Below are positions 4,511 through 60,010 of a stretch of DNA of 64,000 nt, piece by piece (the first letter of the stretch is position 1; each line of letters opens with the position of its first letter). Under the pieces are notes generated by a model. It searched no databases, was not told the DNA's origin, and worked only from the letters and a program-made list of their open reading frames with translations. Both the position numbers and the translations under genes were made by a program. This DNA is from a virus. Where the stretch lies: positions 1-64,000 of the IMG/VR virus record IMGVR_UViG_3300035674_000001. The stretch is one strand, 5' to 3'.

Positions 4511-4541
4511 ATCATTTAAGGGTGAGTTAAGTTACTTGAAG

Positions 4542-28388: not shown

Positions 28389-29298
28389 TATTCAAAGGCA
28401 CAAAATCGGTGCTGTTAAGATACCAGTATCTCCTATTAAAGATGGAGATGTTACTGTTTTAAGGTTAAGCGCCGTTGATATTGATTTGCCAGATATAGGA
28501 TCTAAGGCAATTGAAGAGTTAAAACAGCAAGCTACAACAGCTAAAAAAATTAGCGCCAATCAATTGCAGTATGCACAAGAGCGCTTTAAGATTGAGCAAG
28601 TTATTAAAGAGACAACAAGAAATTTAGAGTTAATTGAAAATGAAACTCGTTACAGAAAAGGAAGAGTAAGGCGTAATTTATTATGGCTAGAAGAAAGATT
28701 AAGCAAATATCCTGAAGAATTTCAAAAAGATGATTTACCAGCACCAAAAAGCTTTTCAGAATTAATTGAAACACGAATCAACTATAAATACAGCTCTGTA
28801 GACGCAGAATTCCGAGCAGCTCGTGTAGAGCGTGATTTAGGAGTAGCTCTTGGAACGTTTTCTTACTATACGCTTAAGCCGTTATTTTTTGCCAATGTCT
28901 ATAAGTCTAAATCTGGAGCAAGTAGCAGCAAAGATAGCAGCGGTTTTAAAAAACTATATGGCACATACAAGAACGAACAAGCTTTTCAGCTTCAATTAAA
29001 AGCATTTCTTTTAGCTTGTGAATTGGCTGGGGTAAGTGCAATACCTAGTCAAGGATGGCGCAAGGATGCCAAGAAGTACAAACCAACTGAATTTTCTAAA
29101 ATAGAACCTTCGCATATACAGCTAGCAGTAAAGACTATTAAGGCAGAGCTAAATATTACTGGTGAAAAGAAGCCTAGAGTTAAAGAATTTACTATCAAAG
29201 AACAAGAATTAGATGCTCGATGCACTCAACTTGAAATGCAACTAGCAGAATGGAAAGAATTTGCTTTGATGCTGCTAACCAACCTAAATCACACTTGA
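28372..29298 (+). CDS. hypothetical protein
   Basis: 308 aa. The ATG overlaps the end of the XRE gene. The 3' end overlaps the portal 3' end by 10 nt. Confidence 0.5.
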   Translation: MTTRFNIQRHKIGAVKIPVSPIKDGDVTVLRLSAVDIDLPDIGSKAIEELKQQATTAKKISANQLQYAQERFKIEQVIKETTRNLELIENETRYRKGRVRRNLLWLEERLSKYPEEFQKDDLPAPKSFSELIETRINYKYSSVDAEFRAARVERDLGVALGTFSYYTLKPLFFANVYKSKSGASSSKDSSGFKKLYGTYKNEQAFQLQLKAFLLACELAGVSAIPSQGWRKDAKKYKPTEFSKIEPSHIQLAVKTIKAELNITGEKKPRVKEFTIKEQELDARCTQLEMQLAEWKEFALMLLTNLNHT

Positions 29299-40202: not shown

Positions 40203-42503
40203 TCAGACTTGCTTCAGGTTGGCTTCACCCCAAGCAAACAAATCACCTTGCGCCGATTCTTTTTCAGCACGTCCCATGTTTTTCAGTGCCTCATTGAAAT
40301 AGCTTTCTTTGAGTTCAATGCCAAGGTACTTTCTTGATTGCTTGATTGCTTGGTATCCTGTAGAACCAATACCGTTAAATGGATCAAGCACTAAGTCGCC
40401 AGGATTAGACCATAGCTGGATTGAGCGTTCAATTACCTGGAGCTGAAGAGGTGCAATATGCCTTTCATCACTATCTTCTTTGGCAAACCGACCAGTCAAC
40501 GTGTCCGATGGGTTAATATCCATCCACACAGGCGAAGCATAGCGCTGCCAAACTTCAACACTATTTCGCTGCACGTCACCAACTAACTTGATATCGTCGC
40601 TGCCAGCATAGTAGGTTAATTCACCAGTAATTGGCTCAGGATTGTTTCCTGGTTTACGAAAAACAACAAGGGTATCGGGTATCCCTTGGCGACTCATTGC
40701 ACTATCTTTAACTACTTGTTTATGCAACAGTCCTAGCGCTTTAGTTCGCTGCATAGCTTGCACTGGATTTTTCCAGATGCAAACTTCACTGTGATAAATC
40801 CAGTCTTTTGACTGAAACATACGAATCACGTCACCCCGAAAGTCTCGTAACCCAATGTAGCCATCTCGCGACTTAAGGGTAGGTAGATTCATGAGATGAA
40901 CAGCGCATAATCGACCGGGTATCGTAATGCGATAAAGTTGCTCTACTAAATAATCAAAATGAGCTGCAAACTGCTCATCACCTGTACAGTTACCTATGTC
41001 ACGAACTGAGCTTGAGTACACGTACAGATTAGCAAAGGGGATTGATGTCACTGTTAGATGTATACAGTTATCTGGCAACTTAGTTGTTATTTCAACACAG
41101 TCCCCTAGATAAAGAGTCCAGTCCTGTCCTTGTTTAACAGTTGTTTTGTATTCCATTTCACTTCTTTCTAGTGACATTTGCTGAACTTGAGTTGCCTTTG
41201 CCATTTCGTTTACCATTTGCTTTGCCATCTCATCTGCCTCTGTTTGCTTTCTTTGTAAGTTACGAGCAATAGCGCTTTCTAGCTTGTCGTAAACCAGATA
41301 AACAGTAACGTCACACTTTTGACCAAATCTGTAGCATCGTCCTACTGTCTGATGGAAGCTTTCCCATGAATGATTCAGACCCACAAATGCCATGTTGTGA
41401 CAATTTTGCAGGTTTAAACCAAAGCCAAACATACTTGGCTTACTGATAAGTACTCGCTTCTTACCTGATGTAAAGTCAAGAACTGCCTGCTCTTTATGTT
41501 CGTCAGAATCACTGCCTTTTACTTCTACAGCATCAGGAATCAATTGAGTTAGCAGCTTAGACTCATCATTGAGATCGCACCAAACTAACCATTGCTCGTT
41601 GCTTGGATTAACTAACTTAGCCGTCTCTTCGCATCGTTGCTTGAGTGTTTGTTTTTTGACATGACGCTGCTCACTTAAAGAAGATGCTTCATAGAAGAAT
41701 AATGCGCCATCAGGTGGTTCAATTTGAGTTTCAATGGTATGGTGAATTATTTCCAGATTAGGCAACACATACGCCTTGTCGGTTTCGGTAAAACCTAGGT
41801 CACCAGGACGCCGAAACATCAATGACCAAGATGCTACCCACTCCCAGAATCGAGCTTGAGCATGTTTCTTGAGTCTCCACTGCGATGTTTTCCCGCCATC
41901 GTGGGTAAAAAACATCGCCAGCATTTCTTCGCGCGTTAACGCACCCACCCATTCAGAATGGTTGCCTAGCTCCATGTAGTCGTTTGGTGCAGGGGTAGCC
42001 GTACAGGCTAGCTTATAAGGAGTAGATGCAAAGCTTTCAAGTAGCTCACTAGTTGTTTTGCTCTCAAAGTGTTTGATGCAAGATGACTCATCAAGCACAA
42101 CTCCCGCAAACTGACTAGCATCAAACCTGGCTAGTTTTTCGTAGTTCGTGATAAAGATGTTGCCATTATGATCTGCAATATCTTCTGGGTTAGCAACATA
42201 CTTGACTGAGATGCCAAACTTTTCACCCTCACGAACAGTTTGCTGCGTTACTGCTAGGGGTGCGAGTATTAGTACTTTGCCTCCCGTGTATTTTGCAACG
42301 TGAAAACTCCATTCAAGTTGCATAAGCGTCTTACCTAGTCCTACACCAGCAAATAAACAATACTTGCCTTTGGCTAGTGCAGTTTTAACAGCAAACTGCT
42401 GGAAATCAAACAAGGATGGGTTTAATTTATGTTCTTCAACAGTAAAGCCAGATGGTTTGACTACAATGCGTTTTTGCTCAAGAAAGTCTTGATAATTGCT
42501 CAT
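40203..42503 (-). CDS. SNF2-family helicase fused to a C-terminal beta-class N6A/N4C DNA methyltransferase
   Basis: Helicase motifs: GVGLGKT (I), VVLDESSCIKH (II), ACTATPAPNDYMELG (III), FGFGLNLQ (V), QTVGRCYRFGQ (VI). Methylase motifs: TSIPFA (IV) then LVLDPFNGIGSTG (I). Start ATG 42503 (MSNYQDFLEQK) is preferred; alternatives are 42533 and 42560. Confidence 0.85.
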   Translation of the reverse strand: MSNYQDFLEQKRIVVKPSGFTVEEHKLNPSLFDFQQFAVKTALAKGKYCLFAGVGLGKTLMQLEWSFHVAKYTGGKVLILAPLAVTQQTVREGEKFGISVKYVANPEDIADHNGNIFITNYEKLARFDASQFAGVVLDESSCIKHFESKTTSELLESFASTPYKLACTATPAPNDYMELGNHSEWVGALTREEMLAMFFTHDGGKTSQWRLKKHAQARFWEWVASWSLMFRRPGDLGFTETDKAYVLPNLEIIHHTIETQIEPPDGALFFYEASSLSEQRHVKKQTLKQRCEETAKLVNPSNEQWLVWCDLNDESKLLTQLIPDAVEVKGSDSDEHKEQAVLDFTSGKKRVLISKPSMFGFGLNLQNCHNMAFVGLNHSWESFHQTVGRCYRFGQKCDVTVYLVYDKLESAIARNLQRKQTEADEMAKQMVNEMAKATQVQQMSLERSEMEYKTTVKQGQDWTLYLGDCVEITTKLPDNCIHLTVTSIPFANLYVYSSSVRDIGNCTGDEQFAAHFDYLVEQLYRITIPGRLCAVHLMNLPTLKSRDGYIGLRDFRGDVIRMFQSKDWIYHSEVCIWKNPVQAMQRTKALGLLHKQVVKDSAMSRQGIPDTLVVFRKPGNNPEPITGELTYYAGSDDIKLVGDVQRNSVEVWQRYASPVWMDINPSDTLTGRFAKEDSDERHIAPLQLQVIERSIQLWSNPGDLVLDPFNGIGSTGYQAIKQSRKYLGIELKESYFNEALKNMGRAEKESAQGDLFAWGEANLKQV

Positions 42504-42586
42504 GATGTTTGCTTGCTCATTTGACTTTTTCATCTTAGTGCGATGTAAACTATAAAGCAAGTTGTTTCGTAGGCGGCTTAATTAAA

Positions 42587-45298: not shown

Positions 45299-45392
45299 CC
45301 TTTATTCATCTAATAGCATAACACTTGCATTGATTTAGCTAATTTTTTCACTTAAAATACTACAAGCAATCTTGACTTTCTTTTTAAGAGTT

Positions 45393-47426
45393 ATGCAGCA
45401 ATTAAATCTTGACTTATCAATTCCCAAACAACCTGAAAAAGAGATTGTCTTACACAAATTCCAGGTACGTGCTAAAAAAGAAACTTATCAGCGCATCAAA
45501 GAAGGCTACAAACGTATCTTGGTAATCGCTTTAATGCGTTTTGGAAAAACGTATTTAGCTGGTTGGATGATTCGTGATGCCAACCGCAAAAACAAAAGAT
45601 GTTTGGTGTTGCTTGACCGAGAATGCTTGGTAAGTCAAACCCCTGATGACTACAGAGATTTAGGCTTAGATCCGCTAGTTTACCAGGGTAAGCAAAACAA
45701 AGAGAGTATAGAGCTAAAGACTGCGCCAGTAGTCATTGCCAGTATTCAAACTATCGAAACAAGAATCAGGTTAGCCAAGAAAAAAGGTATTGAGATTACA
45801 GCCAGAGATTTGCTGGGTGACTTTGATGTAATTCATGTAGATGAAGCACATCTTGTAGCTTTCAGGGATGGCTACAAACATATTCAAGATACTTATTTAG
45901 CCAATGGTGCTATCTTCATTGGCTATACGGGTACCATCTGGCGGGTAAATAAGAAAGAGTACATGGGAATGCACTTTGATATTGCCGTCATTGGAGCGCA
46001 ACCGCCGGAGTTAGTTGCAGATGGTCGAGTTGCATGGGGTCGGTTTTTCTGTCCTGGCAGCTATTTTGACTATACAAAGCTAGATGAACGAGAAGGAGAC
46101 TACACTGATAGCTCAGTTGAGAAGCAAGCTGTTACTGAAGAGAACTTAGAAACAGCACTATATAACTTTAAGAAATACTTTGTTGATGCAAATACCAATG
46201 AGGTAAAGCGCATTTCACTAGGATTTTGCGTAACTGTCAAGCACGCTAAAGCTATTTGTGATTATTTTACTCAGGCTGGATATCCTTGTGAATTCTTGAC
46301 TGGCATGACAAAGCGAGAAGAACGACAAGCAATGTACCAGCGACTAAAAGACAAAAAGACTAAGGTGCTTTTCAGTGTAAGTGCTTTGGGTATTGGACTT
46401 AACTTACCATTCGTAGATGGCATCCTGTATCTAAGACCCACTAAGTCACAATCATTATTCTTTCAGTCAGTCTGTCGAGCTGCTACCGCATACCCAGGTA
46501 AAAAGTTCTGGATGTGTCTAGACTTTGGCGATAACTTCGGCACTCGATTTCCGCATCCACTAGCACTACAAGATTATGACATATCTAAACCTAAAAACCG
46601 CAAACACGTAGAAATGTATAAAATATGTCCTGTTGATCGAGGTGGGTGTGGTGAGCAAGTAAGTAAGTTTGCTCGTGTTTGTCCCGAATGTGGATATGAG
46701 TTTGTTGTAGACAAAGAAGAAGAGGAAGAAGAGCTAGATTTAGATCCAGGAGTAATAGAATTAGTAGAAATTCTTTCAGTAGAAGATCAGGCAAGAATCA
46801 AGTGGTTTAGAAAGTTAAGGCGCAATGCCTACCTAGAAGAAACTTCACCGCATGAGCCAACTAAGTTGTTTTATCAAAAATACGGCTTTGAGCCGCCTGA
46901 AGACTGGTATTACAAAGCTTGCTTAGGTAAACGAAAGAATCATTCTGCACAAGCCATAGCAAAGCTACGAAAGTATTTTGCTCATTGGCAAACTACCGAT
47001 TACTGGAGCTGGACTAGTAACCAGATGGTGCTAGAGTTTGGAACGTTACAAAAGCAGCGAGAAGAGCAAGAACGCGAAGAAAGAGAAGCAGAAGCTAAAA
47101 AGCAGCGAGAAGAGAAGAGACGCCAACAAAAAGAGCAGCAAGAGCAATGGCGCAAGCAATACGAAGACTATGTAAACTCTTGGCATAATCAATTTAGAAG
47201 CAGCACTAACCAAGTTCATTGGTGGATGACTCTTTTGGGTATAGATAGGCAAAATACATTACAAGAAGCCAAAAAAGCCTATATGCAACTAGCCAAGAAG
47301 TATCACCCTGACACTAAAGCTTATTCAACAGATATTGCCGACTGGACTGATGAGCAGATTACTGAAAAGATGCAAGAAATTAATAATGCATGGGAAATAG
47401 CAAAAGCTTGCTTGAGCAAAAAGTAA
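45393..47426 (+). CDS. SF2 DEAH helicase with zinc ribbon and C-terminal J-domain (DnaJ-like)
   Basis: Walker A: LMRFGKTYLAG. DEAH box: IHVDEAHLV. Also YTGT and LGIGLNLP...QSVCRA. Zinc ribbon: CPVDRGGCGEQ...CPECGYEF. An E/R/K/Q linker leads to the J-domain LLGIDRQNTLQEAKKAYMQLAKKYHPDT...MQEINNAWEIAK, which carries the HPD tripeptide. ATG 45393. Confidence 0.8.
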   Translation: MQQLNLDLSIPKQPEKEIVLHKFQVRAKKETYQRIKEGYKRILVIALMRFGKTYLAGWMIRDANRKNKRCLVLLDRECLVSQTPDDYRDLGLDPLVYQGKQNKESIELKTAPVVIASIQTIETRIRLAKKKGIEITARDLLGDFDVIHVDEAHLVAFRDGYKHIQDTYLANGAIFIGYTGTIWRVNKKEYMGMHFDIAVIGAQPPELVADGRVAWGRFFCPGSYFDYTKLDEREGDYTDSSVEKQAVTEENLETALYNFKKYFVDANTNEVKRISLGFCVTVKHAKAICDYFTQAGYPCEFLTGMTKREERQAMYQRLKDKKTKVLFSVSALGIGLNLPFVDGILYLRPTKSQSLFFQSVCRAATAYPGKKFWMCLDFGDNFGTRFPHPLALQDYDISKPKNRKHVEMYKICPVDRGGCGEQVSKFARVCPECGYEFVVDKEEEEEELDLDPGVIELVEILSVEDQARIKWFRKLRRNAYLEETSPHEPTKLFYQKYGFEPPEDWYYKACLGKRKNHSAQAIAKLRKYFAHWQTTDYWSWTSNQMVLEFGTLQKQREEQEREEREAEAKKQREEKRRQQKEQQEQWRKQYEDYVNSWHNQFRSSTNQVHWWMTLLGIDRQNTLQEAKKAYMQLAKKYHPDTKAYSTDIADWTDEQITEKMQEINNAWEIAKACLSKK

Positions 47427-47450
47427 ATTAGTTGATTTTTAGAACAGTAA

Positions 47451-47491
47451 AACAATACTCCTCTAGCTATTAAGACTAGAGGAGTATTGTT
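47451..47491. terminator. bidirectional rho-independent terminator
   Basis: AACAATACTCCTCTAG-9 nt-CTAGAGGAGTATTGTT, flanked by AAAA and TTTT. Confidence 0.9.
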
Positions 47492-47520
47492 TTATGATGT
47501 TGACTAAGCTAGTTTAACGT

Positions 47521-49644: not shown

Positions 49645-49673
49645 TTGACAATATTTTTAAGGATTCGTAGTAT
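49645..49673 (+). promoter_or_regulatory. strong sigma70-type promoter TTGACA-17-TAGTAT heading the 49751-57192 operon
   Basis: TTGACA at 49645-49650, exact 17-nt spacer, TAGTAT at 49668-49673. An AAAGTCAAG box lies at the predicted transcript 5' end (49678-49686). Confidence 0.7.
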
Positions 49674-49750
49674 GAGGAAAGTCAAGCAAGTTTTCGGAAA
49701 GTTTAAGGAAAGCTTAAAGAAAACATTGAGTTAAAGGAGAGTGAAAAGAG

Positions 49751-50116
49751 ATGACATGCGGGGTACTTAGAAAAATTCCAGAAACAAATACTGAGTTCTT
49801 AGCTCGTAGGTATGGTGTGAGGACTCGAACGATTACCAACTGGAAGAAATATCTAGGTTTATCCTGCTCTAGAAAACTTTATCCTGCTGATGCCGAAATT
49901 GAAGAACTAGATCGACTGTATGTAATGTGCGGAGTGTGGAGAGGAAGATCTTCTCATTGGAGAGGATTAAGAATGAGCGTCAAAGAATATCAAGACCTAA
50001 TAGTTGATCAGGGATTATCTCTTGACTACTGGCTACAATCAACTCATGGGATTACCTATGAAGAGTACATAGCGGGTCTTGAATCTCTCAATAGGCGCTC
50101 TTTGTTTGGCAACTAA
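49751..50116 (+). CDS. HTH DNA-binding protein
   Basis: AAAGGAGAG RBS. The segment EFLARRYGVRTRTITNWKKYLG is HTH-like. Confidence 0.55.
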   Translation: MTCGVLRKIPETNTEFLARRYGVRTRTITNWKKYLGLSCSRKLYPADAEIEELDRLYVMCGVWRGRSSHWRGLRMSVKEYQDLIVDQGLSLDYWLQSTHGITYEEYIAGLESLNRRSLFGN

Positions 50117-50137
50117 CTTACTTTTTAGGACACAAAA

Positions 50138-50728
50138 ATGAGCAACGAAAGAAAATCAATTCGCGAATGGTCAAGAGAGATGGTTGCTGAAGGCTTTAGT
50201 CAAGCTACTCCAGCTTTCTTGATGCAGAAGCTTGGCAAAAACTCTGCGAGTGATGTTGTTAGCAAAGACGAACTCAGAGCAGCATTGGGTTCAGGCAATA
50301 ATACTTCTAGCTCACCTAGTACCCAACAAACTCGGCAAAACACTGGCAGTGTTGGGATGGCTCAGCAAGTTATCCAAGATTTTGACAGCTTTTTAGACAA
50401 AGATGCCAAAGTTACCGCCTTGCAGGGACAGCAGCAGTATACACGCTATATTGCAAAATACTTCTCCATGCCAGCAGAACAAGTTAAAGCGTTACTAGAA
50501 GAAGAAAATATTCCTGAACAAGGAGTAGGTTTTGAAGATTTTTTTTCGACAAATCGAGGCAGCGATCTCTCTCAGCTACTAGGTCAACCGAGCCATGCTC
50601 CACAACTAGCAGCAGGCTCAAGCCAGTCATCGAGCCAATTGTTGACGGAGAGCTTACCCGAACCATTGACACAGCAGCCAAGCGAGAGGTTGGGAAACTC
50701 AAGCGATACACCTCTTACAGAGAATTAA
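50138..50728 (+). CDS. Q/S-rich protein, zero-frame product of a candidate frameshift gene
   Basis: 196-aa ORF with ATG start. Contains GAT TTT TTT TCG at 50537-50548. Confidence 0.55.
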   Translation: MSNERKSIREWSREMVAEGFSQATPAFLMQKLGKNSASDVVSKDELRAALGSGNNTSSSPSTQQTRQNTGSVGMAQQVIQDFDSFLDKDAKVTALQGQQQYTRYIAKYFSMPAEQVKALLEEENIPEQGVGFEDFFSTNRGSDLSQLLGQPSHAPQLAAGSSQSSSQLLTESLPEPLTQQPSERLGNSSDTPLTEN

Positions 50729-50982
50729 TAGTCGAGCGTCAGGGTGAGACAGAAGGATTAGCAATTTCTGCCTCTTCGGCGGGACTTACCGCGGCTTGTA
50801 CCATTTTATCAAGCTACTTATCTGCAAGTCCCGCATTACCTAGCTCATCTGACTCAAATCAAGCAAGTCAGATTTCAGTAAGTGCTTCAGGGATATTCAT
50901 GGGTGCATTTGCAGGAGTGATCATATCTACCGCAGTCACCCATGCCTATTACAGGTTCATCAAAAACCGGAAAGCAAAATAG
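50536..50982 (+). other. 149-codon open -1 frame without a start codon, ending in a TM anchor (putative frameshift extension)
   Basis: Hand translation: ...PVIEPIVDGELTRTIDTAAKREVGKLKRYTSYRELIVERQGETEGLAISASSAGLTAAC...GIFMGAFAGVIISTAVTHAYYRFIKNRKAK*. It fills the otherwise gene-free gap 50729-50941. There is no ATG/GTG/TTG until codon 123. Confidence 0.4.
50539..50546 (+). promoter_or_regulatory. T8 slippery run (T_TTT_TTT in zero frame), candidate -1 frameshift site
   Basis: The run starts 3 nt after the last -1-frame stop (TGA 50533-50535). The -1 frame is then open for 149 codons. Confidence 0.4.
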
Positions 50983-51403
50983 TCAACTAAGTAGTCAACC
51001 TAATCAGGGTTTAGAAGAGGAACTGGATAAAATGATTCACGAAATTCACGACATTATCAGAAGTGCATGTGCTGGTCAACTTTGTTCAGTTCCTCTTGCT
51101 TTTCTTGTAGGAAGCATTCAAGGAACTGGATTAGCAGGAGTAGCGGCTATTATTGCCAATCCAGCTACGGTCAGTATCTTTGCTCTATCTGGTATAGCAA
51201 TGCATCAAATACACAAATTGTTTAAAGCACTAGACAGGTGGGAAGCTGAGAGACAAGAAGAAATAGCAGTCGAGGCAGTTATTAATCAACTTTGGGAATC
51301 TAGCAATTGCCAAGAGTTAGCTAATTCTAAGAAAAAGAAATCAACTACACGCACAGCAGACAAAAAAGTTGTTGACTTGAATCAATACAGGAATCGGAGG
51401 TAA
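50942..51403 (+). CDS. membrane protein (2 TM)
   Basis: CSVPLAFLVGSIQGTGLAGVAAIIANPATVSIFALSGIAM, with a basic C-terminus. An alternative start is ATG 51031. Confidence 0.5.
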   Translation: MPITGSSKTGKQNSQLSSQPNQGLEEELDKMIHEIHDIIRSACAGQLCSVPLAFLVGSIQGTGLAGVAAIIANPATVSIFALSGIAMHQIHKLFKALDRWEAERQEEIAVEAVINQLWESSNCQELANSKKKKSTTRTADKKVVDLNQYRNRR

Positions 51404-51408
51404 GCTTT

Positions 51409-52470
51409 ATGTCTGCTACACAGTTTAATGATGAAAGCCACGATAGGGACTACTCACCTTACCTTGACCCAACTCGACCTGTTCAACGCAAGAAGAAGCC
51501 AAGTGTTGACCCATATGACAGTGACTATGAGGGAGATGATCCGTTTCTTGGCGATCAACTCTTTGCTAACTTGCAAAAAAATGCTGAAGATAGAAGAAAA
51601 TCTGTTAAGAATTGGCGATTCTTCGGGACGATAGGACTTGTTGTAACTAGTTCAACAATAGTTGGTGGGTTTGCATTATTAGTTAAGCTTGATCAAGCGC
51701 CTCCAGAACAAGGTGTACAACTTTCAGATGAGCTAGCTAATGAACTACAAGCACAAGCAGATTGGCTTCAATTTGACCAGAGAGTAGACACAACAGCTCA
51801 AATTGCACCTTTAAAAGCTGAGCCAGGATACCGTCAAACATTGGCAATGAGCTTAGGCGCTAAGCTACGAACTCGCATTCAATCTCGATTAATTCGCAAT
51901 GATGATGAATGTAATGTAGTTGGTGGAGATGTTGCTAGCTGTGCTTACATCATTGAACGAAAAGATGTTGATAAGATTCGTGATTTAGGCTTGGCTGGCA
52001 AGATGCCATTTCTGGTGCATATTGAAAATGGCAAGGTTGACATTATTCGACAGCTTAGCCAAGAAGAAGTACTTGACTGGAGCAACTTTAACAAGCAGGC
52101 ATTAGATGCTGCTATCAGTCAAGTTAACATCAACAAACCCATTGATCCGTTCAAGATTGACCAAAAGCGAGATCAACTCATTGAGGCGCGGATTAATAGA
52201 TTGGAAGCAGAGCAAAAAACTGATGCAGCACAACGCATTAGGCAGGCAGCTATAGGATTGAGTCGCATTCAGTCTTTACCCACACAACAGCAAGAAGTTG
52301 AAGCGGCTGAACAAGAAGCAAGAGAGCAATTAGAGTTTCAGCAAAAACAACGTGAATATTTGCTTAGAAAAGAGCAAATGATGAAGCAACAAGAATTGAC
52401 TAAGCAAAAAGCAGAACTGAAGCAGAAACAAAACAAATTGAAGAATCAAGGTAAAGCCAACAGCAAGTAA
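51409..52470 (+). CDS. bitopic membrane protein with long Q/E/K coiled-coil tail
   Basis: One TM helix (FFGTIGLVVTSSTIVGGFALLV). The C-terminus reads ...EAAEQEAREQLEFQQKQREYLLRKEQMMKQQELTKQKAELKQKQNKLKNQ. Confidence 0.55.
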   Translation: MSATQFNDESHDRDYSPYLDPTRPVQRKKKPSVDPYDSDYEGDDPFLGDQLFANLQKNAEDRRKSVKNWRFFGTIGLVVTSSTIVGGFALLVKLDQAPPEQGVQLSDELANELQAQADWLQFDQRVDTTAQIAPLKAEPGYRQTLAMSLGAKLRTRIQSRLIRNDDECNVVGGDVASCAYIIERKDVDKIRDLGLAGKMPFLVHIENGKVDIIRQLSQEEVLDWSNFNKQALDAAISQVNINKPIDPFKIDQKRDQLIEARINRLEAEQKTDAAQRIRQAAIGLSRIQSLPTQQQEVEAAEQEAREQLEFQQKQREYLLRKEQMMKQQELTKQKAELKQKQNKLKNQGKANSK

Positions 52471-52475
52471 AGATT

Positions 52476-54065
52476 ATGAAAACCAACAAAATTAAGCTTT
52501 ATTTGTTAATAGGGGGAGAGTTAGCTACGGGTATTTTACTTTTATGCTCAGCTATTCAAACTTACCCGGTAAAATATGCACAACAAGTACAGCTAGACAG
52601 GTTTAAAGGAAGTATTAGCAATCCAGCTAATGTGCCTAGTAGTTTCGCTCCCTTTTTGGCTTTACTTGGTATTGTAGCAACGGGAGATAGTGTAAGGCGA
52701 TTCTGGGGAAGTTTTGATAGCGAACTGGGAATCAACTCTAGTTCTAGTCAATTTAGCAATCAAGTTGAACCTTCAACTCATCAGCCAGTAACACAGCAAG
52801 TATCATCGGTAACACCAGTAAAGCCAGAACAAGTCATTCCTCAAGTAACTTACAAGCCTAGATTAATTACTCCACAAACAAGTAGTGTTGACAATCAATC
52901 GTTAGCTCAACCAAGATCAACTCCGACTGCTGCTCAGGTTTCTGCGCTGCCACCATTGCCAGTATCAGCACCAGTTGTTGCTCCAGTAAGACCTAGAAGA
53001 CAAACCCAAAGAGTTAAGTCTGTAGCCACGCTTGACATAAATGCATTTGCAAAGAACAAGCTTTCGTGTGTATTTGCAGGCGCACCCAGGACAGGGAAAA
53101 GCACAACTCATCTAACATGGATGGCAAAAAAGATAGAAGCTGATCCTGAAGTGTCATTTAGGGTTGTCACACAAAAAAAGAATAGTTTTTTAGGTCTTAA
53201 CCAAATTCCAGAAGTAGTGCAGATTGCGTCACGCAATAATAGTTATGCACCAGTATTCTGGCAAACGTTATACGTTTGGAATGAACTGCAAGCTCGGCTC
53301 GAACTAGAAGAGGATGAGCGAGACTCTTTAAGTGAATGCTGGCTGGTGTTAGATGACTGGTATAGTATTGTTGCCAACCTAGAAATCTACAAGCCTTCTA
53401 CTAAAGTAGGACAAGCTTGGAATATTTGCAAAGGACAGTTTAGTGACATTATCACTTTGGGTGCTGAATACGGAGTAGGCATCAGTGCCAACACTCATAC
53501 GCTAAACCTTGCTCACTTTGGATTAGCAGAAGACTCAAATATTAGAAGCGTTTTGAGCATTTGTGTAATGGGTAGAATTCATACGTCTGAGGGAAGAAAA
53601 GAAGGGGGATTTGATGCAATTACTAATGCACTTAGAAACCCCTACTTAATAGATGACTCATACGCTCAGTATATTCGAGAAAGATTTCCTGAGCTTAAAG
53701 CCTACTCGCTTGAAACAGGCTTACCTATTGTACTTTCCACAATGGGTGAACCTGAATTAAGCGTAATGCCGGACTTGAGCTGGATTAAAAATTACAGAGT
53801 TGCCATTGATCCAGAAGCCACGGTTGAATATCTCGAAACTTTAATTCAGCAAGACAACCAAATTAGTAGTGAGGATAAAAACAGTGAAGACTATTGGCAA
53901 GAAAAACAGCATCAGAATGAAGTTATCGCTAGTACTGGCATCAACTCTGACTGGTTGCTACCTCATGCTAGCAACCAAGCTACTAAAGAACTTGACTTTC
54001 AAGAAGAAAATGATGAGACTTACGAATTTGAAGATGAGGAATTAGAAGATGAATCCAATGGATAA
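52476..54065 (+). CDS. membrane-anchored P-loop NTPase, FtsK/SpoIIIE/TraB-like architecture
   Basis: Two N-terminal TM helices and a P/S/Q/V-rich linker. Walker A: VFAGAPRTGKST. Walker B: CWLVLDDW. Later segments LGAEYGVGISANTH and SVLSICVMGR lie in the positions expected for FtsK-type motors. The C-terminus is acidic. Confidence 0.5.
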   Translation: MKTNKIKLYLLIGGELATGILLLCSAIQTYPVKYAQQVQLDRFKGSISNPANVPSSFAPFLALLGIVATGDSVRRFWGSFDSELGINSSSSQFSNQVEPSTHQPVTQQVSSVTPVKPEQVIPQVTYKPRLITPQTSSVDNQSLAQPRSTPTAAQVSALPPLPVSAPVVAPVRPRRQTQRVKSVATLDINAFAKNKLSCVFAGAPRTGKSTTHLTWMAKKIEADPEVSFRVVTQKKNSFLGLNQIPEVVQIASRNNSYAPVFWQTLYVWNELQARLELEEDERDSLSECWLVLDDWYSIVANLEIYKPSTKVGQAWNICKGQFSDIITLGAEYGVGISANTHTLNLAHFGLAEDSNIRSVLSICVMGRIHTSEGRKEGGFDAITNALRNPYLIDDSYAQYIRERFPELKAYSLETGLPIVLSTMGEPELSVMPDLSWIKNYRVAIDPEATVEYLETLIQQDNQISSEDKNSEDYWQEKQHQNEVIASTGINSDWLLPHASNQATKELDFQEENDETYEFEDEELEDESNG

Positions 54066-54630
54066 ATATGGTTTCGACGATGAAGAAGAGAATCCTGATC
54101 AAGAAGAATGGGAAGACGGTGTTGCTACACAAATTCAACCAAGTATTAACACTAGAGCTATCCCCAAGATAGCAACTTCAACATCACCAACAAAAGTACA
54201 AGGCAAACCTAGAGGAAGCAGTAAACCAATGGCTAGACAACAATCACAGCTTGGCAACTTCAACATTGACCACGAAATCCGTGTAATGGCTAAGGTTAAA
54301 GACCTCAGTGAAGAGCATGTTGCAACTCTAAGCGCTTTTTGGCAAAGCTACTTCGAGCGGCGTCCAGAAGAGATGCAGCGGTTGTATCACTTACGGGACG
54401 AAAATCCTGAAGAGTTTAGAGCAATTTTGTTTACTCTTCCTGGAAGTGCAAATCGTCACAAACTCGAAACAGGCTATTTCCTAATGGCTTGCGTAGGCTT
54501 TGGTTGCGTAGGACTTTTTCTAATTACTTGGGTTTTCGGTGCGTTCAACCCAGATAAAGGGTGGAACTTTGCTAAAAACAAAAACGCTATTCCTAATATT
54601 GTTGAAGCACTCTATGAAGGAGGTCGATAA
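54049..54630 (+). CDS. tail-anchored membrane protein
   Basis: Acidic N-terminus. C-terminal TM: GYFLMACVGFGCVGLFLITWVFGAF. Overlaps the upstream gene by 17 nt. Confidence 0.5.
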   Translation: MNPMDKYGFDDEEENPDQEEWEDGVATQIQPSINTRAIPKIATSTSPTKVQGKPRGSSKPMARQQSQLGNFNIDHEIRVMAKVKDLSEEHVATLSAFWQSYFERRPEEMQRLYHLRDENPEEFRAILFTLPGSANRHKLETGYFLMACVGFGCVGLFLITWVFGAFNPDKGWNFAKNKNAIPNIVEALYEGGR

Positions 54631-54883
54631 AATACCATTTGGTGCAATCAATCCTAAAGGCGAACCACATCATCGAAGACTTGCAGCACTTGAGATAGGT
54701 CGCCACTTGATACAGCGAAGCGACAAAGATTCAAGCTACTTAATGGTTGCAGATCTAACACCTAAAGAGCTTGCCATCCTTTACAACAATGTCGAACAAT
54801 TGGGTCTTGATCTAAACACTCACGCTTATGTTGAATCTGAGCGAATTGTTGAATACGATAACGAACTTGATGGAAATTTATGA
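54614..54883 (+). CDS. small soluble protein
   Basis: ATG 54614, overlapping the upstream stop, is preferred over the track start 54539. Confidence 0.45.
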   Translation: MKEVDKIPFGAINPKGEPHHRRLAALEIGRHLIQRSDKDSSYLMVADLTPKELAILYNNVEQLGLDLNTHAYVESERIVEYDNELDGNL

Positions 54884-54884
54884 C

Positions 54885-55085
54885 ATGACTCATTCACCAG
54901 AGCCAGAAAGCAAAACTAAAACAATAGCAAAGACTATCGCTGCATTTGCTGGAACTGTAGTAGGTACAGCAACAGCAGAAATGATGCTAAAACAACTTGC
55001 TAAAGCACCTACAGGAGTGCAAGTTGTAATTGTAGCTGCTGCAACAGCTCTTGTTGCCAAGAATCAACTTGATAATAATAGTTGA
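54885..55085 (+). CDS. small hydrophobic protein (2 TM, A/V/T-rich)
   Basis: TIAKTIAAFAGTVVGTATAEMM...VQVVIVAAATALVA. An alternative start is at 54870. Confidence 0.45.
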   Translation: MTHSPEPESKTKTIAKTIAAFAGTVVGTATAEMMLKQLAKAPTGVQVVIVAAATALVAKNQLDNNS

Positions 55086-55184
55086 CTTTTACATTGCATC
55101 GCCTTTTGGAAGTTTTGCTTAAACTCCTCAAAAGGCGAATGGAGTGTTCAGGTTAATTAACTAGCAACACAATTGAGGTTTTCA

Positions 55185-55451
55185 GTGAACTACAAAAACT
55201 ACAGATACAGAGTTAAGTTTTCTCTAACTAGCAAAATATTTCTGACTGTTGCTATCTGGTCTTTCATCTTAAATTTATTGTCACCAGGTTTTTTGAAATA
55301 CCTGCTAGTACAAAACGCCTGGAATTTAGTTACAAGCACAACTAGTGATGCTGTCAAGCTTAGTCAGAAGCAGATTAATCGAGCAAAGCAGCAGAGCAAA
55401 CGCCAATCAGGCTGCAAGACGGTTTACTGTCAACTTACAAAAGAGAACTAG
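55185..55451 (+). CDS. small single-TM protein
   Basis: GTG 55185 with GAGG 6 nt upstream. TM: IFLTVAIWSFILNLLSPGF. Confidence 0.45.
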   Translation: MNYKNYRYRVKFSLTSKIFLTVAIWSFILNLLSPGFLKYLLVQNAWNLVTSTTSDAVKLSQKQINRAKQQSKRQSGCKTVYCQLTKEN

Positions 55452-55453
55452 CG

Positions 55454-56374
55454 ATGCGCAAGATCAGGCTTAGCCTTGAATACGACTCAAGCAAAGATCC
55501 GGTAGTACCACCTACCGTGATTCAGCATCCCATACAGCAGCAATCCATACCTACCACAACTGAGCAACCTATTCAACCTAGTTATTCAGCACCGCATTAT
55601 TCACATCATCAGCCTACTCACATTCAGCAAACAACCCATTATCAGCATCCTGCACCTGTAACTACTTCACTTGCTCCTACTGTCCTTGAAGTACCTCTTG
55701 AGCAGCAACTACAGAGAGGAGCTGTAATTACCAGCATTGTAGTGTGTGGACTTGCCGGCTTGCAGCTTTATCCTCCGGCTTGGAATTATCTTGAATCTCA
55801 AAAAGCTGTTCAAGAAATTCAGCGAGTATTTAACAGGTTGCCAGGTGCTTCACAGCCAGGTTCAAGTAAAAAAACAAAACTAAGCCTCAATAAACTTGAC
55901 ATTGCTACTCCCAAGAGAGGAGAGAGAATTGGCAATTTTATAGTCACATCTGGGTGGGGACGCCGACCATCTCCTGTGCCAGGTGCCAGTAGCTATCACA
56001 GAGGCATAGATGTTGGCGTCACTATAGGCACAGCAAAAGGTAAGCCATTATATGCAATAGGCTTGCCAGGAGAAGTTCTAAAAGTAAGTTACTTGAGAGA
56101 CGCAACGGGTGGAGGAGGAAATTTTGTTAGTTTTACTTCTCCTGGATTGAACAAAACTTTTCGCTATCTTCACCTAGATTCTGGTAAGTCCGGTTTATTT
56201 AAACCAGGCGATCTGATAGGTTATATCGGAGACTCTGGCATAGGATCAGGAGCGCACCTGCACTTTCAGCAGCGTAACTCTAGCTTTCAAATTGAGCCGC
56301 CTTATCGCATCTATGTAGAAGCTAGTTTGGATCAAAGTCTAGCAAGAAACTTACTAAGCAGAGGGGAAAACTAA
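55454..56374 (+). CDS. membrane-anchored M23 (LytM-type) peptidoglycan endopeptidase
   Basis: M23 motifs YHRGIDVG (HxxxD) and GSGAHLHFQ (HxH). The N-terminus is Q/H/P/T-rich and includes a TM helix (AVITSIVVCGLAGLQLY). Confidence 0.85.
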   Translation: MRKIRLSLEYDSSKDPVVPPTVIQHPIQQQSIPTTTEQPIQPSYSAPHYSHHQPTHIQQTTHYQHPAPVTTSLAPTVLEVPLEQQLQRGAVITSIVVCGLAGLQLYPPAWNYLESQKAVQEIQRVFNRLPGASQPGSSKKTKLSLNKLDIATPKRGERIGNFIVTSGWGRRPSPVPGASSYHRGIDVGVTIGTAKGKPLYAIGLPGEVLKVSYLRDATGGGGNFVSFTSPGLNKTFRYLHLDSGKSGLFKPGDLIGYIGDSGIGSGAHLHFQQRNSSFQIEPPYRIYVEASLDQSLARNLLSRGEN

Positions 56375-56928
56375 TGCCAGTACATCCTCATGTTATTAGT
56401 GTGTCGGCTATAGGCTTGCTAGTACTGGGTGCAACTACAGCTAAACCCGTTGTAAATAACGTTAAGCAAGCCATAGAAAAACACCAAAATATCAATGCAA
56501 GCTCTGCTCAAGTTACAGCTTTAAGGCGTGCCATCATTGGTCAAGAATCTAATCATCAATATAACCTAGTAAACCCTCATTCAGGTGCATTAGGCTACGC
56601 TCAGCTAATGCCAGCCAATGTCAGACCTTGGACAAAAGAAGCACTAGGATACGCAATGGATTCTAGAGAATTTCTCTCTAACCAAAAAGCGCAAATAAAA
56701 ACAATTGACTTTAAATTAAATGAATATCTCAGACGTGAATTAGCACAGGGTCATAACGAAGAGCTAACTATACGTCGAGTTGCATCAGCTTGGTATTCAG
56801 GACAACCAAGATTATGGAACAATACTAGACCCCAGTACTATGGTGGCGCAAGATATCCAAGCATTGAAAATTACACTCGGTCTGTTTGGCGAAAATACTT
56901 GAAAGAAAAAGCCAAATTAAACAAGTAA
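56374..56928 (+). CDS. anchored lytic transglycosylase (SLT domain)
   Basis: N-terminal signal anchor. IIGQESNHQYNLVNPHSGALGYAQLMPANV matches the E-S...GLMQ pattern of SLT domains. The start overlaps the upstream stop. Confidence 0.8.
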   Translation: MPVHPHVISVSAIGLLVLGATTAKPVVNNVKQAIEKHQNINASSAQVTALRRAIIGQESNHQYNLVNPHSGALGYAQLMPANVRPWTKEALGYAMDSREFLSNQKAQIKTIDFKLNEYLRRELAQGHNEELTIRRVASAWYSGQPRLWNNTRPQYYGGARYPSIENYTRSVWRKYLKEKAKLNK

Positions 56929-56955
56929 GTTGAATAAATAACAAGAGGACATAAA

Positions 56956-57192
56956 ATGCATTTTCAATTAAATACCTTATTAATGGAACGACTAGAAACA
57001 CTTGCAACTATCGTTCATTTTATTCTGCTAATCTTTTATGCGACATCAGCTCATTCCAAGCAAAGCAGGCTAGAGCTAGCCAACACTGCCTTTATATCTT
57101 GTTACTTACTACCGCAAATTGGTTTTCAGTGGAGTTCGTTCTATCTGGTAGTAGCCATCTGGGATGTTTCCAAGAAAGATGAGATGCTTTAA
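56956..57192 (+). CDS. small membrane protein (2 TM)
   Basis: AGAGGA RBS. Hydrophobic segments: LATIVHFILLIFYATSA and WSSFYLVVAIW. Confidence 0.5.
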   Translation: MHFQLNTLLMERLETLATIVHFILLIFYATSAHSKQSRLELANTAFISCYLLPQIGFQWSSFYLVVAIWDVSKKDEML

Positions 57193-57233
57193 ACTAATTG
57201 ATAGATAACAACTTAGTTGAAGGATTGCTGGTG

Positions 57234-57761
57234 ATGCACGAACAAGATTTTACTACCAATGCCGACAGCACCGAAAAGCAGTTTCAGGAGACAATCAGTG
57301 AAAAGATATACACGATGAGTGTTCGACAAGGAGTGAAACTAGGAGCAATTGCTAAAAAGTTTAATATTAGCATTAGCCAAGTGCAAAAACACATAGAAAG
57401 TTATATTGACAGAGAACTAATACCAAAAGTCAAGCTTGGCACTGAACGGTGTAGAGCAATGCAGCTCTACGAGCTAGAACAGATGGGAATCTTTCTGGGA
57501 GCTTGCATTCAGAATCAAATGAAAAGAGCAGCAGACGATCCAGACAACATCAAGATTGATGGCAGAATCATGGAGCTGTATCACAAAAATATCTTGCAGC
57601 GAGCTAAATTACTTGGTACAGAAATTGTTCAGTCTGCTCCGCTGAACCCGTCAGACAATGACTTTCCGGTTACTATTAACGAGTCAGACATGCAGACTCT
57701 TGCGGAGTTATCTGACGATGAACTGCAAAAGAGGTATCTTGAAACTTTGGCTCAAGGTTGA
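57234..57761 (+). CDS. HTH protein; possible small terminase subunit or regulator
   Basis: HTH: VKLGAIAKKFNISISQVQKHI, followed by helical segments. No small-terminase candidate lies next to terL. Weak. Confidence 0.3.
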   Translation: MHEQDFTTNADSTEKQFQETISEKIYTMSVRQGVKLGAIAKKFNISISQVQKHIESYIDRELIPKVKLGTERCRAMQLYELEQMGIFLGACIQNQMKRAADDPDNIKIDGRIMELYHKNILQRAKLLGTEIVQSAPLNPSDNDFPVTINESDMQTLAELSDDELQKRYLETLAQG

Positions 57762-57805: not shown

Positions 57806-58075
57806 ATGGAGAAAAGCGAATCTAGCAGCAAAAAATTGTTTGACTTCTACTTTTCAGCAGATCAGTTTAATAACGCAAGGAAAGATGAAAGAAAGTATTT
57901 AATGATAAACAACCAGCCTTTTACTGAAGTAGTATCGACAGGAAAGCAACCGAAAAGTAATTTCAATGATCTGGTACTAATAGCAGAAGCGCATGAGTAT
58001 AACTCAAATGTCACTTCTGGTAGATTTACATCAAGACTTGAGCCTGAGCTGCATCTAGGTAGATTAAAGAAATAG
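57806..58075 (+). CDS. hypothetical small protein
   Basis: 89 aa with ATG start. An AAAGTCAAA box lies 19 nt upstream. Confidence 0.5.
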   Translation: MEKSESSSKKLFDFYFSADQFNNARKDERKYLMINNQPFTEVVSTGKQPKSNFNDLVLIAEAHEYNSNVTSGRFTSRLEPELHLGRLKK

Positions 58076-58498: not shown

Positions 58499-60010
58499 AT
58501 GTCAGAAAAATTAGAAGTAAAATACATTCCTCTTAGTCAGGCTGTGCTACTGGAGATAAATCCCAAAAAGCATGATATGGGTGGCTTAATAGAATTAATT
58601 AAGTTACATGGCTTTAAAGATCCGCCAAAGTGGGAACCGCAACTCAATAACGGCAACGGTGGCATCGTAGAAGGCAATGGCAGAATAGAGGCTTTGTCTG
58701 TCATGTATGGCATGAAAGAAGACAAGCCTAGGGGTATCTTGGTCAATTCTGAAACAAACGAATGGCTAGTACCTGTACTGTTTGGGGTAAATTCTGAGAG
58801 TGAACAAGCAGCGCTGGCTTATTCTATTAGCCATAACGTATCTACGATGGCTGGCGGAGATTTTGAGCTGAGTGATTACTTAAAGCTTTATGACCAAGAA
58901 GAATTTATTGATTTAGCTATTAACTTAGCCGAACAAGATTTCTATGCCTTGCCATTTGATGGTGATGACATAGACAGCTTGAAAGCCATTCGTGAGTCTT
59001 GGTTTAAAGACAACCAGCAGGTTACAGAAGAAGATGACTCTGAAGATCTAGATGAGCTTGAGAGTGACATTAGCGAGCTAGACAACACTCTAAGCGAATC
59101 AGAAATAAAATCACGGGTAAACAAAGGCGAGTTGTGGCAGGTTCGCGCAGCAGATTCAACTCACTTGATTATGTGTGGTGATTGTCGGGACTTTGCTGAT
59201 GTATACAAGCTCATAGGTCAAAGAGAAGTGAATCTTGTTTTTACTTCTCCTCCGTATGCATCGCAAAGAAAGTACGATGAGTCATCTGGATTTAAGCCAA
59301 TTAAGCCTAATGAATACTTAACTTGGTTTAAATCTGTTCAATTGAATTTGCACAAGTTCTTAGCAAAAGATGGCAGTTACTTTCTTAATATCAAATCTCA
59401 CGTAGAAGAAGGGAAAAGAAACCTTTATGTAAATAAGCTGGTAATTGCTCATGCAGAGGATTGGCACTGGCACTTTATTGATGAGTTTTGTTGGACTAAA
59501 TCAGGAATGCCAGGTAGTTGGAAAAATAGGTTTAAGAACGGTTGGGAACCTGTTTTTCACTTTGCATTAACTGACGATATTAAGTTTAGACCCGATAACG
59601 TCTTGCGTAAGCCAGAAGGAGGAAAAGCGAAAGTAAAATTTGATGCTGTCAAAGATAACGTCAACTCTGATTATTGGTTTCATTCTAATGATTCCAAAGA
59701 ACTAGAAGGCGCGTTACCCAGCAACGTGATCAGTGTCAACTCAATGGCACTAGACAATAAAGTACTGGGTAACAAAAAGTTAGGACACGCTGCACCGTTC
59801 CCAGTTGCTTTACCTGATTTCTTTATCAGAGCATTTAGTGATGTTAATGACTGGGTATTCGAGCCATTTGCTGGTTCAGGTACGGTCGCTATTGCATCGC
59901 ATCGTAACCGACGAAACTCACTTAATATGGAAATCTCGCCAGGATACTGCAACTATATCCTAACGAGATTAGAAAAAGAAACAGGCTCTAAAGCTGAGTT
60001 AGTTAATTAG
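58499..60010 (+). CDS. ParB-like N-terminal domain fused to an N6A/N4C DNA methyltransferase
   Basis: ParB/nuclease-like N-terminus (IPLSQAVLLEINPKKHD...IVEGNGRIEAL). Methylase motif IV: VFTSPPYASQ. Motif I: VFEPFAGSGTVAIA. Confidence 0.85.
   Translation: MSEKLEVKYIPLSQAVLLEINPKKHDMGGLIELIKLHGFKDPPKWEPQLNNGNGGIVEGNGRIEALSVMYGMKEDKPRGILVNSETNEWLVPVLFGVNSESEQAALAYSISHNVSTMAGGDFELSDYLKLYDQEEFIDLAINLAEQDFYALPFDGDDIDSLKAIRESWFKDNQQVTEEDDSEDLDELESDISELDNTLSESEIKSRVNKGELWQVRAADSTHLIMCGDCRDFADVYKLIGQREVNLVFTSPPYASQRKYDESSGFKPIKPNEYLTWFKSVQLNLHKFLAKDGSYFLNIKSHVEEGKRNLYVNKLVIAHAEDWHWHFIDEFCWTKSGMPGSWKNRFKNGWEPVFHFALTDDIKFRPDNVLRKPEGGKAKVKFDAVKDNVNSDYWFHSNDSKELEGALPSNVISVNSMALDNKVLGNKKLGHAAPFPVALPDFFIRAFSDVNDWVFEPFAGSGTVAIASHRNRRNSLNMEISPGYCNYILTRLEKETGSKAELVN

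Follow-up and report, generated by a model that had tools for sequence, protein, structure and literature searches.

What is an operon of small membrane proteins, a membrane-anchored ATPase and two murein hydrolases doing in a tailed phage of a filamentous cyanobacterium? The question is raised by positions 49,645 to 57,192 of the first 64,000 nucleotides of the IMG/VR virus record IMGVR_UViG_3300035674_000001; this 64-kb stretch, with a G+C content of ~40%, is the whole of the DNA that was analysed and is referred to here as the window. An initial annotation, made from the sequence alone, had described the operon as an envelope-spanning machine recalling minimal conjugative DNA-translocation systems, and had offered cell-to-cell genome spread, superinfection exclusion and an ejection or entry complex as possible roles. 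Judged from sequence comparison, there is about an even chance that the operon represents a mobile envelope module of the plasmid type, belonging to filamentous cyanobacteria and acquired by a tailed phage, and that it encodes an ATP-driven translocation complex. The features of the operon and of its immediate surroundings are listed below, with the transmembrane (TM) segments taken from a Kyte-Doolittle scan; aa denotes amino acids, HTH helix-turn-helix and ORF open reading frame.

49645-49673, plus strand: sigma-70-like promoter TTGACA-17-TAGTAT (10/12 matches) in a divergent intergenic region of ~950 nt
49678-49686, plus strand: copy of the 9-mer AAAGTCAAG, directly 3' of the -10 hexamer of the operon promoter
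49751-50116, plus strand: g1, soluble, 121 aa, with an HTH-like segment (RRYGVRTRTITNWKKYLGL) recognised by eye only
50138-50728, plus strand: short form of g2, soluble, 196 aa, conserved in loci L001 and L002
50539-50546, plus strand: T8 slippery run with an in-phase T_TTT_TTT heptamer, a candidate site of -1 frameshifting or transcriptional slippage
50536-50982, plus strand: extension of g2 in the -1 frame, 148 codons, with a TM helix and a basic tail at its end
50942-51403, plus strand: g3, 153 aa, two TM segments
51409-52470, plus strand: g4, bitopic, 353 aa; N-in TM segment at 72-94, external domain, long helix at the C-terminus
52476-54065, plus strand: P-loop ATPase, 529 aa, TM segments at 3-29 and 58-83, Walker A GAPRTGKST and Walker B LVLDD
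54049-54630, plus strand: g6, 193 aa, TM segment at 141-167 near the C-terminus and a conserved external tail KNAIPxNIxExxYxGG
54539-54883, plus strand: g7, small and soluble, likely starting at a later ATG at ~54614; ORF only
54828-55085, plus strand: g8, hydrophobic, 85 aa, rich in A, V and T; ORF only
55173-55451, plus strand: g9, 92 aa, one N-terminal TM segment, TTG start
55454-56374, plus strand: M23 (LytM-type) endopeptidase with a Q/H/P-rich N-terminus, a TM segment at ~89-109, and HxxxD and HxH motifs
56374-56928, plus strand: SLT-type lytic transglycosylase with an N-terminal signal or anchor
56956-57192, plus strand: hydrophobic, 78 aa; ORF only
57198-57761 and 57806-58075, plus strand: two further ORFs of 187 and 89 aa, following after gaps of 5 and 44 nt, without family matches

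The genes form a tight array (49751-57192; gaps of -17 to 87 nt), and no protein with more than about two TM segments was found in it. All of the genes named in the initial annotation, about ten of them for membrane proteins, are present in the order given there, while three of the small ORFs are without conservation. The gene g1, which had been read as an HTH protein, exists and looks HTH-like by eye but has no match in Pfam, PHROGs or NCBIfam. None of the ten non-hydrolase products matched Pfam, PHROGs, NCBIfam (above cut-off) or PADLOC, the last of which gave 0/10 for the operon proteins scanned.

Rather more can be said of the ATPase from its AlphaFold2 (AF2) model, in which the N-terminal helices 3-29 and 58-83 are followed by a disordered Pro/Gln-rich linker, a RecA-like core of only ~280 residues (185-465; confidence score pLDDT >90) and a disordered acidic tail. 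The Walker A lysine (K208) and Walker B aspartate (D294) are invariant in an alignment of 77 relatives. When the model was compared with the Protein Data Bank (PDB) by Foldseek, the top matches were EccC (1.3e-6, the best), the FtsK motor (1e-5) and TcpA of pCW3 (6o1w; 1.3e-5, target-normalised TM-score 0.43), with EssC also among the best and a target TM-score of 0.48 for EccCb1-D2, in agreement with the FtsK-like nature first attributed to the protein. General RecA, Rho and F1 folds scored below EccC, FtsK, TcpA and EssC, and no TrwB or VirD4 structure appeared among the top 50 matches; the all-alpha domain of VirD4/TrwB is not present. Searches of the PDB sequences by phmmer and by profile gave P-loop-level matches only, and members of the family also match T2SSE weakly. 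As modelled, the protein is an FtsK/HerA-type ATPase built like TcpA, with two N-terminal TM segments and a single FtsK-like domain. Amongst the viral models of BFVD, Foldseek matched a 712-aa protein of the Nodularia phage vB_NspS-kac65v161 (4.6e-15) and, at lower rank, FtsK-like phage proteins and A32-type packaging ATPases.

The EccC and EssC domains amongst the top matches raise the alternative of a type VII-like protein secretion, in which the ATPase would export proteins such as the hydrolases or small effectors over the inner membrane and thereby remodel the envelope or attack neighbours. A weak match of the ATPase to the NCBIfam model T7SS_EccC_b (4e-4; 18.8 bits against a cut-off of 346) and the many small proteins of the operon would suit such a function. 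EccC and EssC, however, contain three or four tandem FtsK-like ATPase domains and act with WXG100 substrates, whereas the window protein has one such domain and no WXG100 match was found by Pfam in the operon. FtsK and TcpA match nearly as well, the hydrolases, each with a signal or anchor of its own, do not require a dedicated exporter, and the family shows a link to plasmids, one of them of MOBP type (described below). Secretion of this kind is thus considered distinctly unlikely.

The link to plasmids emerged from a survey of the ATPase family. Word-index protein searches, which reach too short a distance for this family, returned besides the query itself, on a 122-kb contig, only one 54%-identical protein from a Phormidium metagenome-assembled genome; an exhaustive profile search gave 171 representative clusters, with the match spanning profile residues 200-460. 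By tblastn the family was located on 15 complete plasmids, all of them from filamentous cyanobacteria (Leptolyngbya, Nostoc, Oscillatoria, Aulosira, Tolypothrix, Calothrix and Microchaete), and the members with a named organism also all belong to filamentous cyanobacteria (Phormidium, Allocoleopsis, Trichocoleus, Nostoc and FACHB-DQ100). Several of the plasmid homologues have been named by NCBI as 'type IV secretory system conjugative DNA transfer family protein'. A distant homologue on plasmid NZ_CP064892 (29 kb) of Tolypothrix PCC 7601 ends an operon of about ten small proteins, and the same plasmid encodes a MOBP relaxase, MobC and the replication protein CyRepA1.

No match to the ATPase was obtained by tblastn against 50,697 phage records even at E = 10, and none was found by tblastn of the family member P0022 against the phage collection, by megablast of the operon against the phage and plasmid collections, or by ATPase scans of viral contigs and genome contigs; a scan of the metagenome gave one locus. 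The only isolated phage found with a relative is the 147-kb siphophage vB_NspS-kac65v161 (MK605243), whose 712-aa gp140, a remote homologue detected by Foldseek and local blastp only, is 26% identical to the window ATPase over 253 aa (local BLAST). Its gene closes a same-strand operon, gp124-gp140 (L015 31831-39963), which lies among replication genes and encodes ~16 small proteins, several with TM segments. Small TM proteins and an ATPase share one operon there as in the window, but that operon lacks an M23 or transglycosylase gene, its accessory proteins are unrelated to those of the window, and all of its genes are annotated as hypothetical. The two phages otherwise share only a lysozyme.

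A search for the same gene array in other elements had been proposed in the initial annotation, and such an array does occur. Comparison of the contigs carrying ATPase relatives (loci are denoted here by L-numbers) showed it to recur in about ten loci, with the closest annotated relatives on cyanobacterial plasmids. Amongst the closer relatives (29-57% identity) the shared order comprises a small 2-TM protein, a bitopic protein, the ATPase, a C-terminally anchored protein of 110-210 aa, a protein of 80-107 aa with one N-terminal TM segment, the M23 enzyme and a glycosidase; from the bitopic protein to the glycosidase this order was observed in L002, L007, L009, L011, L016 and L017. At the head of the module g1 (50% and 37% identity, respectively) and g2 are conserved in L001 and L002. 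A homologue of g3 that is 50% identical was found in L001, and small 2-TM proteins occupy the same position in L002, L004, L005 and L009. Homologues of g4 lie directly upstream of the ATPase gene in L001, L002, L004, L005, L007 and L009. For g6, homologues were found in L002 and L003 and proteins of the same shape 3' of the ATPase gene in L004, L007, L009, L011, L016 and L017, and g9 homologues are placed immediately 5' of the M23 gene in L002, L004 and L009.

The surroundings of the module elsewhere include replication initiators, DUF3560 primase-like and DUF3854 proteins, the DNA polymerase III beta subunit, ParA/ParB, a partition-like protein, transposases and cyanobacterial genes such as XisI and Uma2. 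No virion genes were seen among the neighbours in the compared loci. Two local features of individual members were also noted. Nearly all g4 homologues share a cysteine pair, CNxxxGxxxxC, in the external domain (residues ~167-178 of g4), which suggests a periplasmic disulfide. In L002 (6971-7327) and L003 (2625-2981), a 118-aa ORF directly 3' of the ATPase gene is a partial duplicate of the Walker B region of the ATPase, with 31% identity to the window protein.

Both of the proposed murein hydrolases were recognised. The M23 enzyme is above the cut-off of Pfam PF01551 (2.9e-8; 34.2 bits against 28.7) and its translation contains the zinc-ligand motifs HRGID and HLH, while the SLT protein is borderline for PF01464 (1.9e-4; 21.4 bits against 21.3), with the E-S (GQESNH), GxxQ and AWYSG motifs visible. 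An M23 gene lies 3' of the ATPase gene in all seven type-A loci (those of the closer relatives) that extend far enough downstream. The slot after it is filled by different glycosidases: SLT in the window (56374-56928), GH108 in L016 (14184-14876), a family of ~195 aa in L002 (8638-9225), L007 (13166-13747) and L009 (14912-15520), and another family in L011 and L017. This non-orthologous replacement across loci therefore suggests that selection maintains the glycan-cleaving activity itself. A DUF2927 domain either extends the M23 protein or comes after it in L009 and L011.

The replaced glycosidase also bears on superinfection exclusion or competition between elements, in which incoming DNA of phages or plasmids would be blocked or expelled at the envelope, or the wall changed by the complex so as to keep rivals out. 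The membrane-located members of the operon, its host-type early promoter and its carriage by both plasmids and phages, as is the case for many exclusion and defence genes, would suit that role. Known exclusion systems, however, consist of one or two proteins rather than about ten conserved genes with two wall hydrolases, PADLOC gave no match for any member, and the exchange of one glycosidase for another points to a need to breach the wall. Exclusion is accordingly regarded as unlikely, and a known defence system was rejected on the PADLOC result.

The second gene of the operon encodes, in addition to its soluble product, what may be a membrane-anchored one. The -1 frame opens three bases 5' of the T8 run, at 50536, and joining the N-terminus of g2 to this frame would give a membrane-anchored long form of ~280 aa, in line with the TM-anchored long form named in the initial annotation. 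A T7-T9 run in the same codon phase was found in all five g2 homologues (the window, L001, L002, L004 and L005), which share as little as ~30% identity, and the -1 frames of the five loci (131-157 codons; L001 1020-1439, L002 4158-4553, L004 8212-8685 and L005 487-918) each end in a TM helix and a basic tail. In the +1 frame, 17 codons are open in the window and 17-64 across the five loci. The T-run is thus a candidate for a conserved programmed -1 frameshift or transcriptional slippage site yielding soluble and membrane-anchored forms. Whatever the function of the module, it would be a clean conserved case of programmed frameshifting outside the classic tail-chaperone and dnaX examples. The TM part has, in addition, an ATG of its own in L001, and a second slippery heptamer, GGGAAAC at 50692, is present amongst the g2 loci in the window only.

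Does the operon belong to the phage at all, and if so, is it part of the virion? The promoter proposed at 49645 is present and is the best sigma-70 match within 48.8-58.6 kb, although the number of promoter-like sites in that region (17 found against 19.7 expected) is not above chance. The 9-mer AAAGTCAAG next to it occurs 24 times in the window against 1.19 expected, in copies ranging from 2470 to 62614 (e.g., 14021, 21452, 28007, 34077, 43575, 49678 and 60068). Most of the copies are intergenic and point at the downstream gene, often with TT coming next, and copies also precede head and replication genes. AAAGTCAAG is probably a phage-specific promoter or operator element, for which a sigma-like protein encoded in the window and g1 are candidate binding factors. 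As the operon promoter has this element in common with the rest of the window, the operon is taken to belong to the phage; an artefact in which a plasmid segment abuts a prophage was rejected, as the 9-mer runs through the whole window. No terminator-like site was found on the plus strand before 58.1 kb, and given the two same-strand ORFs close behind 57192 the transcription unit probably extends to ~58.1 kb (about 58075).

Virion and lysis genes lie elsewhere in the window and are listed below together with a helicase gene; the first four form a head-and-packaging block:

24617-25546, minus strand: major capsid protein
26317-27870, minus strand: DUF2213-type protease
29289-31160, minus strand: portal
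34184-36139, minus strand: large terminase (TerL)
4491-6083: endolysin
45372-47426, plus strand: helicase-DnaJ fusion (Pfam ResIII, Helicase_C and DnaJ), upstream of the operon

These positions uphold the view that the operon is neither the packaging nor the lysis apparatus and is not contiguous with a virion block. A packaging role was rejected on the separate TerL, and a lysis role on the separate endolysin and the presence of the module on plasmids. A further alternative is that of virion proteins, whether internal or at the tail tip, which cut the wall and form a DNA channel during ejection or entry; M23 and SLT domains do occur in tape-measure and internal virion proteins (PHROG matches), and TM helices are common in ejection proteins. 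The same module, however, is found on plasmids and in other non-virion contexts, on which ground an ejectosome was rejected. The operon is driven by a host-type promoter, is separated from the head block by ~13 kb and lies on the opposite strand among replication genes, and a cytoplasmic P-loop ATPase has no role in an extracellular particle. A virion-associated function is hardly credible on this evidence. Amongst the roles first suggested, cell-to-cell movement of DNA is predicted to fit best, and ejection or entry is disfavoured by the virion-less plasmids carrying the module and by its place outside the structural block.

How, then, does the module compare with known transfer systems? The likeness to minimal conjugative translocation systems drawn in the initial annotation is supported by the TcpA/FtsK fold, the plasmid relatives and the DNA-transfer names given by NCBI. 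TcpA of the pCW3 Tcp system of Clostridium perfringens likewise has two N-terminal TM segments and a single FtsK-like domain and is of similar size, and Tcp, too, combines bitopic and small membrane proteins with dedicated wall hydrolases. The match to TcpA is structural only, and there is no sequence-level similarity to Tcp. The M23 and SLT hydrolases are not the domain types of TcpG, the window host is a diderm cyanobacterium, unlike the host of pCW3, and neither a TcpF/VirB4-type ATPase nor a VirB6-like protein such as TcpH nor, among the ORFs scanned, a relaxase was seen in the window. That VirB4 is lacking, as first noted, agrees with the absence of any second P-loop ORF of VirB4 size in the 64 kb. 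Nor was a polytopic VirB6-like protein or a recognisable outer-membrane part seen in the window. In Gram-positive type IV secretion systems, membrane-anchored wall hydrolases such as PrgK of Enterococcus pCF10 and TraG of pIP501 have an N-terminal anchor followed by LytM/M23 and SLT activities dedicated to the transfer channel. The same two activities are found in the window on two separate proteins, and homologues of VirB4, VirB6 and VirB8, the rest of the type IV system as it stands beside PrgK and TraG, were not detected in the operon. The coupling proteins VirD4, TraG and TrwB resemble the window ATPase in having an N-terminal TM region followed by a nucleotide-binding domain, but work with a relaxase and a VirB4 system on the same element; no VirB4-sized second ATPase was found here, and no relaxase among the ORFs scanned.

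Two systems that operate without such partners are closer in plan. TraB and the Spd proteins of Streptomyces (pSVH1) transfer double-stranded DNA and achieve intramycelial spread (PMC4447253). The likeness lies in the use of several small membrane proteins alongside one FtsK-like membrane translocase, without VirB4 or relaxase (PMC4447253), in hosts that form multicellular filaments and in partners that interact with peptidoglycan. TraB, however, has a C-terminal winged-helix domain for recognition of repeated clt motifs; the window ATPase lacks such a domain and no clt-like repeats were found, and the accessory proteins of the window are unrelated in sequence to Spd; the window, moreover, has true wall hydrolases and is that of a tailed phage. 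TdtA of ICETh1 in Thermus thermophilus, proposed as a donor-side DNA 'pushing' ATPase that acts without a type IV system, is a membrane-associated, ring-forming FtsK/HerA-type ATPase on a mobile element (PMC5365140). It works with a NurA-like nuclease, a restriction enzyme and recipient competence and has no associated wall hydrolases, whereas the operon has two wall hydrolases and no such nucleases. As defining features of each are absent, the module appears by its sequence to lie outside the Tcp, TraB/Spd, VirD4 and type VII secretion families and to be a variant of FtsK-type, VirB4-less transfer systems. It was also observed that the non-hydrolase members are without PHROG, PADLOC or phage-record matches, and the cluster therefore matches no described phage system, as the initial annotation had concluded; no description of this module was found in the literature.

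If the operon is indeed a translocation module, its complex would sit in the inner membrane and wall and move a macromolecule through both. The ATPase would be held in the cytoplasmic membrane by its two N-terminal helices, would form a ring and would pump a substrate, most probably the element's own DNA. The channel would be built or gated by g4, g3, g6, g9 and long g2, and the anchored M23 enzyme and lytic transglycosylase would open the peptidoglycan locally. Substrate recognition or regulation on the cytoplasmic side would fall to g1, short g2 and possibly g7. The weakest of these steps are the ATPase ring and pump, the element's own DNA as substrate and the channel formed by g4, g3, g6, g9 and long g2. 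By analogy, DNA is the most likely substrate because the family is linked to plasmids, one of which bears a relaxase, because the ATPase resembles TcpA and FtsK, and because Gram-positive transfer systems offer a parallel in their use of anchored LytM and SLT activities. Since no VirB4, VirB6-like protein, relaxase or outer-membrane part was seen, the closest analogy is TraB/Spd or TdtA rather than a classical type IV system, and the design resembles VirB4-less transfer in Streptomyces (TraB/Spd) more than the type IV systems of Gram-negative bacteria. The lack of an outer-membrane component and the filamentous-only hosts would fit transfer across the septum, and movement from one cell of a filament to the next, with just two membranes and the septal wall in between, may be speculated upon.

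Taken to its full extent, this would be a Streptomyces-like single-ATPase apparatus of phages and plasmids of multicellular cyanobacteria that pumps the element's DNA directly from one cell of a filament to another and lets a tailed phage spread there without virions, with the M23 enzyme and transglycosylase drilling the septal wall, no outer-membrane part, and the frameshift setting the ratio of a soluble to an anchored adaptor. We regard that whole picture as unlikely.

Several observations weigh against DNA translocation. The ATPase itself has no Pfam match, and thus none to FtsK_SpoIIIE, HerA (DUF87), T4SS-DNA_transf or TrwB, and amongst its 77 relatives the matches are all weak (FtsK_SpoIIIE in 4, DUF87 in 6 and TrwB_AAD_bind in 1). 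Fold alone cannot separate a DNA pump from a protein-secretion ATPase, and the best match is EccC, of type VII secretion. A DNA-recognition domain like that of TraB or FtsK-gamma is absent, residues 466-529 being acidic and modelled at low confidence. As the initial annotation had stated, no relaxase was found, among those window ORFs that were scanned, which were not all of them; a repeat search showed no clt- or oriT-like array near the operon (no clustered 8-mers). The AF2 model of g4, a bitopic protein conserved next to the ATPase, was built from a 7-sequence alignment and is poor (pLDDT 50), although the long helix 294-351 is modelled; it speaks neither for nor against a VirB8/TcpC-like external domain of NTF2 type, and a profile search of the PDB gave no match. 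The absence of an outer-membrane part is deduced only from the lack of homology and of a lipobox, and no other locus has a homologue of the ORFs at 54539-54883, 54828-55085 or 56956-57192, which are unconfirmed as genes. Finally, no reason is evident for a lytic-capable phage to carry such a module.

The missing DNA-recognition domain also tells against DNA segregation or clearance at the septum in the manner of SpoIIIE or SftA, by which copies of the element would be kept on both sides while the hydrolases remodel the septal wall. The FtsK-like fold and membrane anchor of the ATPase, the named hosts, all filamentous, and the partition-type genes near the module in some loci are compatible with this function. 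The hosts, however, have their own FtsK, and neither an M23 enzyme and transglycosylase nor about six accessory membrane proteins would be needed, which makes segregation very unlikely.

Type IV systems of the MPF_C class are known on Nostoc plasmids, and ~88% of the plasmids of cyanobacteria are at present classed by prediction as immobile (PMC8600333). If the module moves DNA, it would be a conjugation-like cyanobacterial system without VirB4, unlike the MPF_C systems (PMC8600333), and could explain the spread of some of the plasmids predicted to be immobile. The window would then represent a rare tailed phage with its own contact-dependent transfer route, and the idea is raised of mobile elements making use of the periplasm and septa that the cells of a filament share. 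Whatever its function, the module defines a new conserved set of protein families, with 171 ATPase clusters and fixed partners.

No near relative of the window was found among the 50,697 phage records, in which no portal is more than 26% identical to that of the window, and a search of viral contigs returned no relatives of its major capsid protein. The window also encodes DnaB, an Erf-type recombinase, a sigma-factor-like protein and two large helicases. The 239-aa product of 12113-12832 (minus strand) contains a Sigma70 region 4 domain (Pfam 2.9e-9) and may be a phage-encoded sigma factor. A 681-aa ORF (10035-12080, minus strand), with no P-loop and no match in Pfam, PHROGs or PDB sequences, may from its position be a tail or receptor-binding protein. 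Two DNA methyltransferase fusions are present (40203-42560, minus strand, and 58499-60010, plus strand), one joined to an SNF2/DEAD helicase and the other with an N-terminal region that is ParB-like by eye, for which Pfam reports N6_N4_Mtase only. The helicase-DnaJ fusion upstream of the operon, a superfamily-2 helicase with a C-terminal DnaJ domain, has a homologue of the same domain composition at L009 2570-4456 (26% identity), 5.5 kb upstream of the module there, in a locus otherwise unrelated to the window. Directly 3' of the gene in the window, a perfect 19-nt inverted repeat with a 9-nt loop (47448-47494) is probably a terminator that splits the helicase-DnaJ gene from the divergent region.

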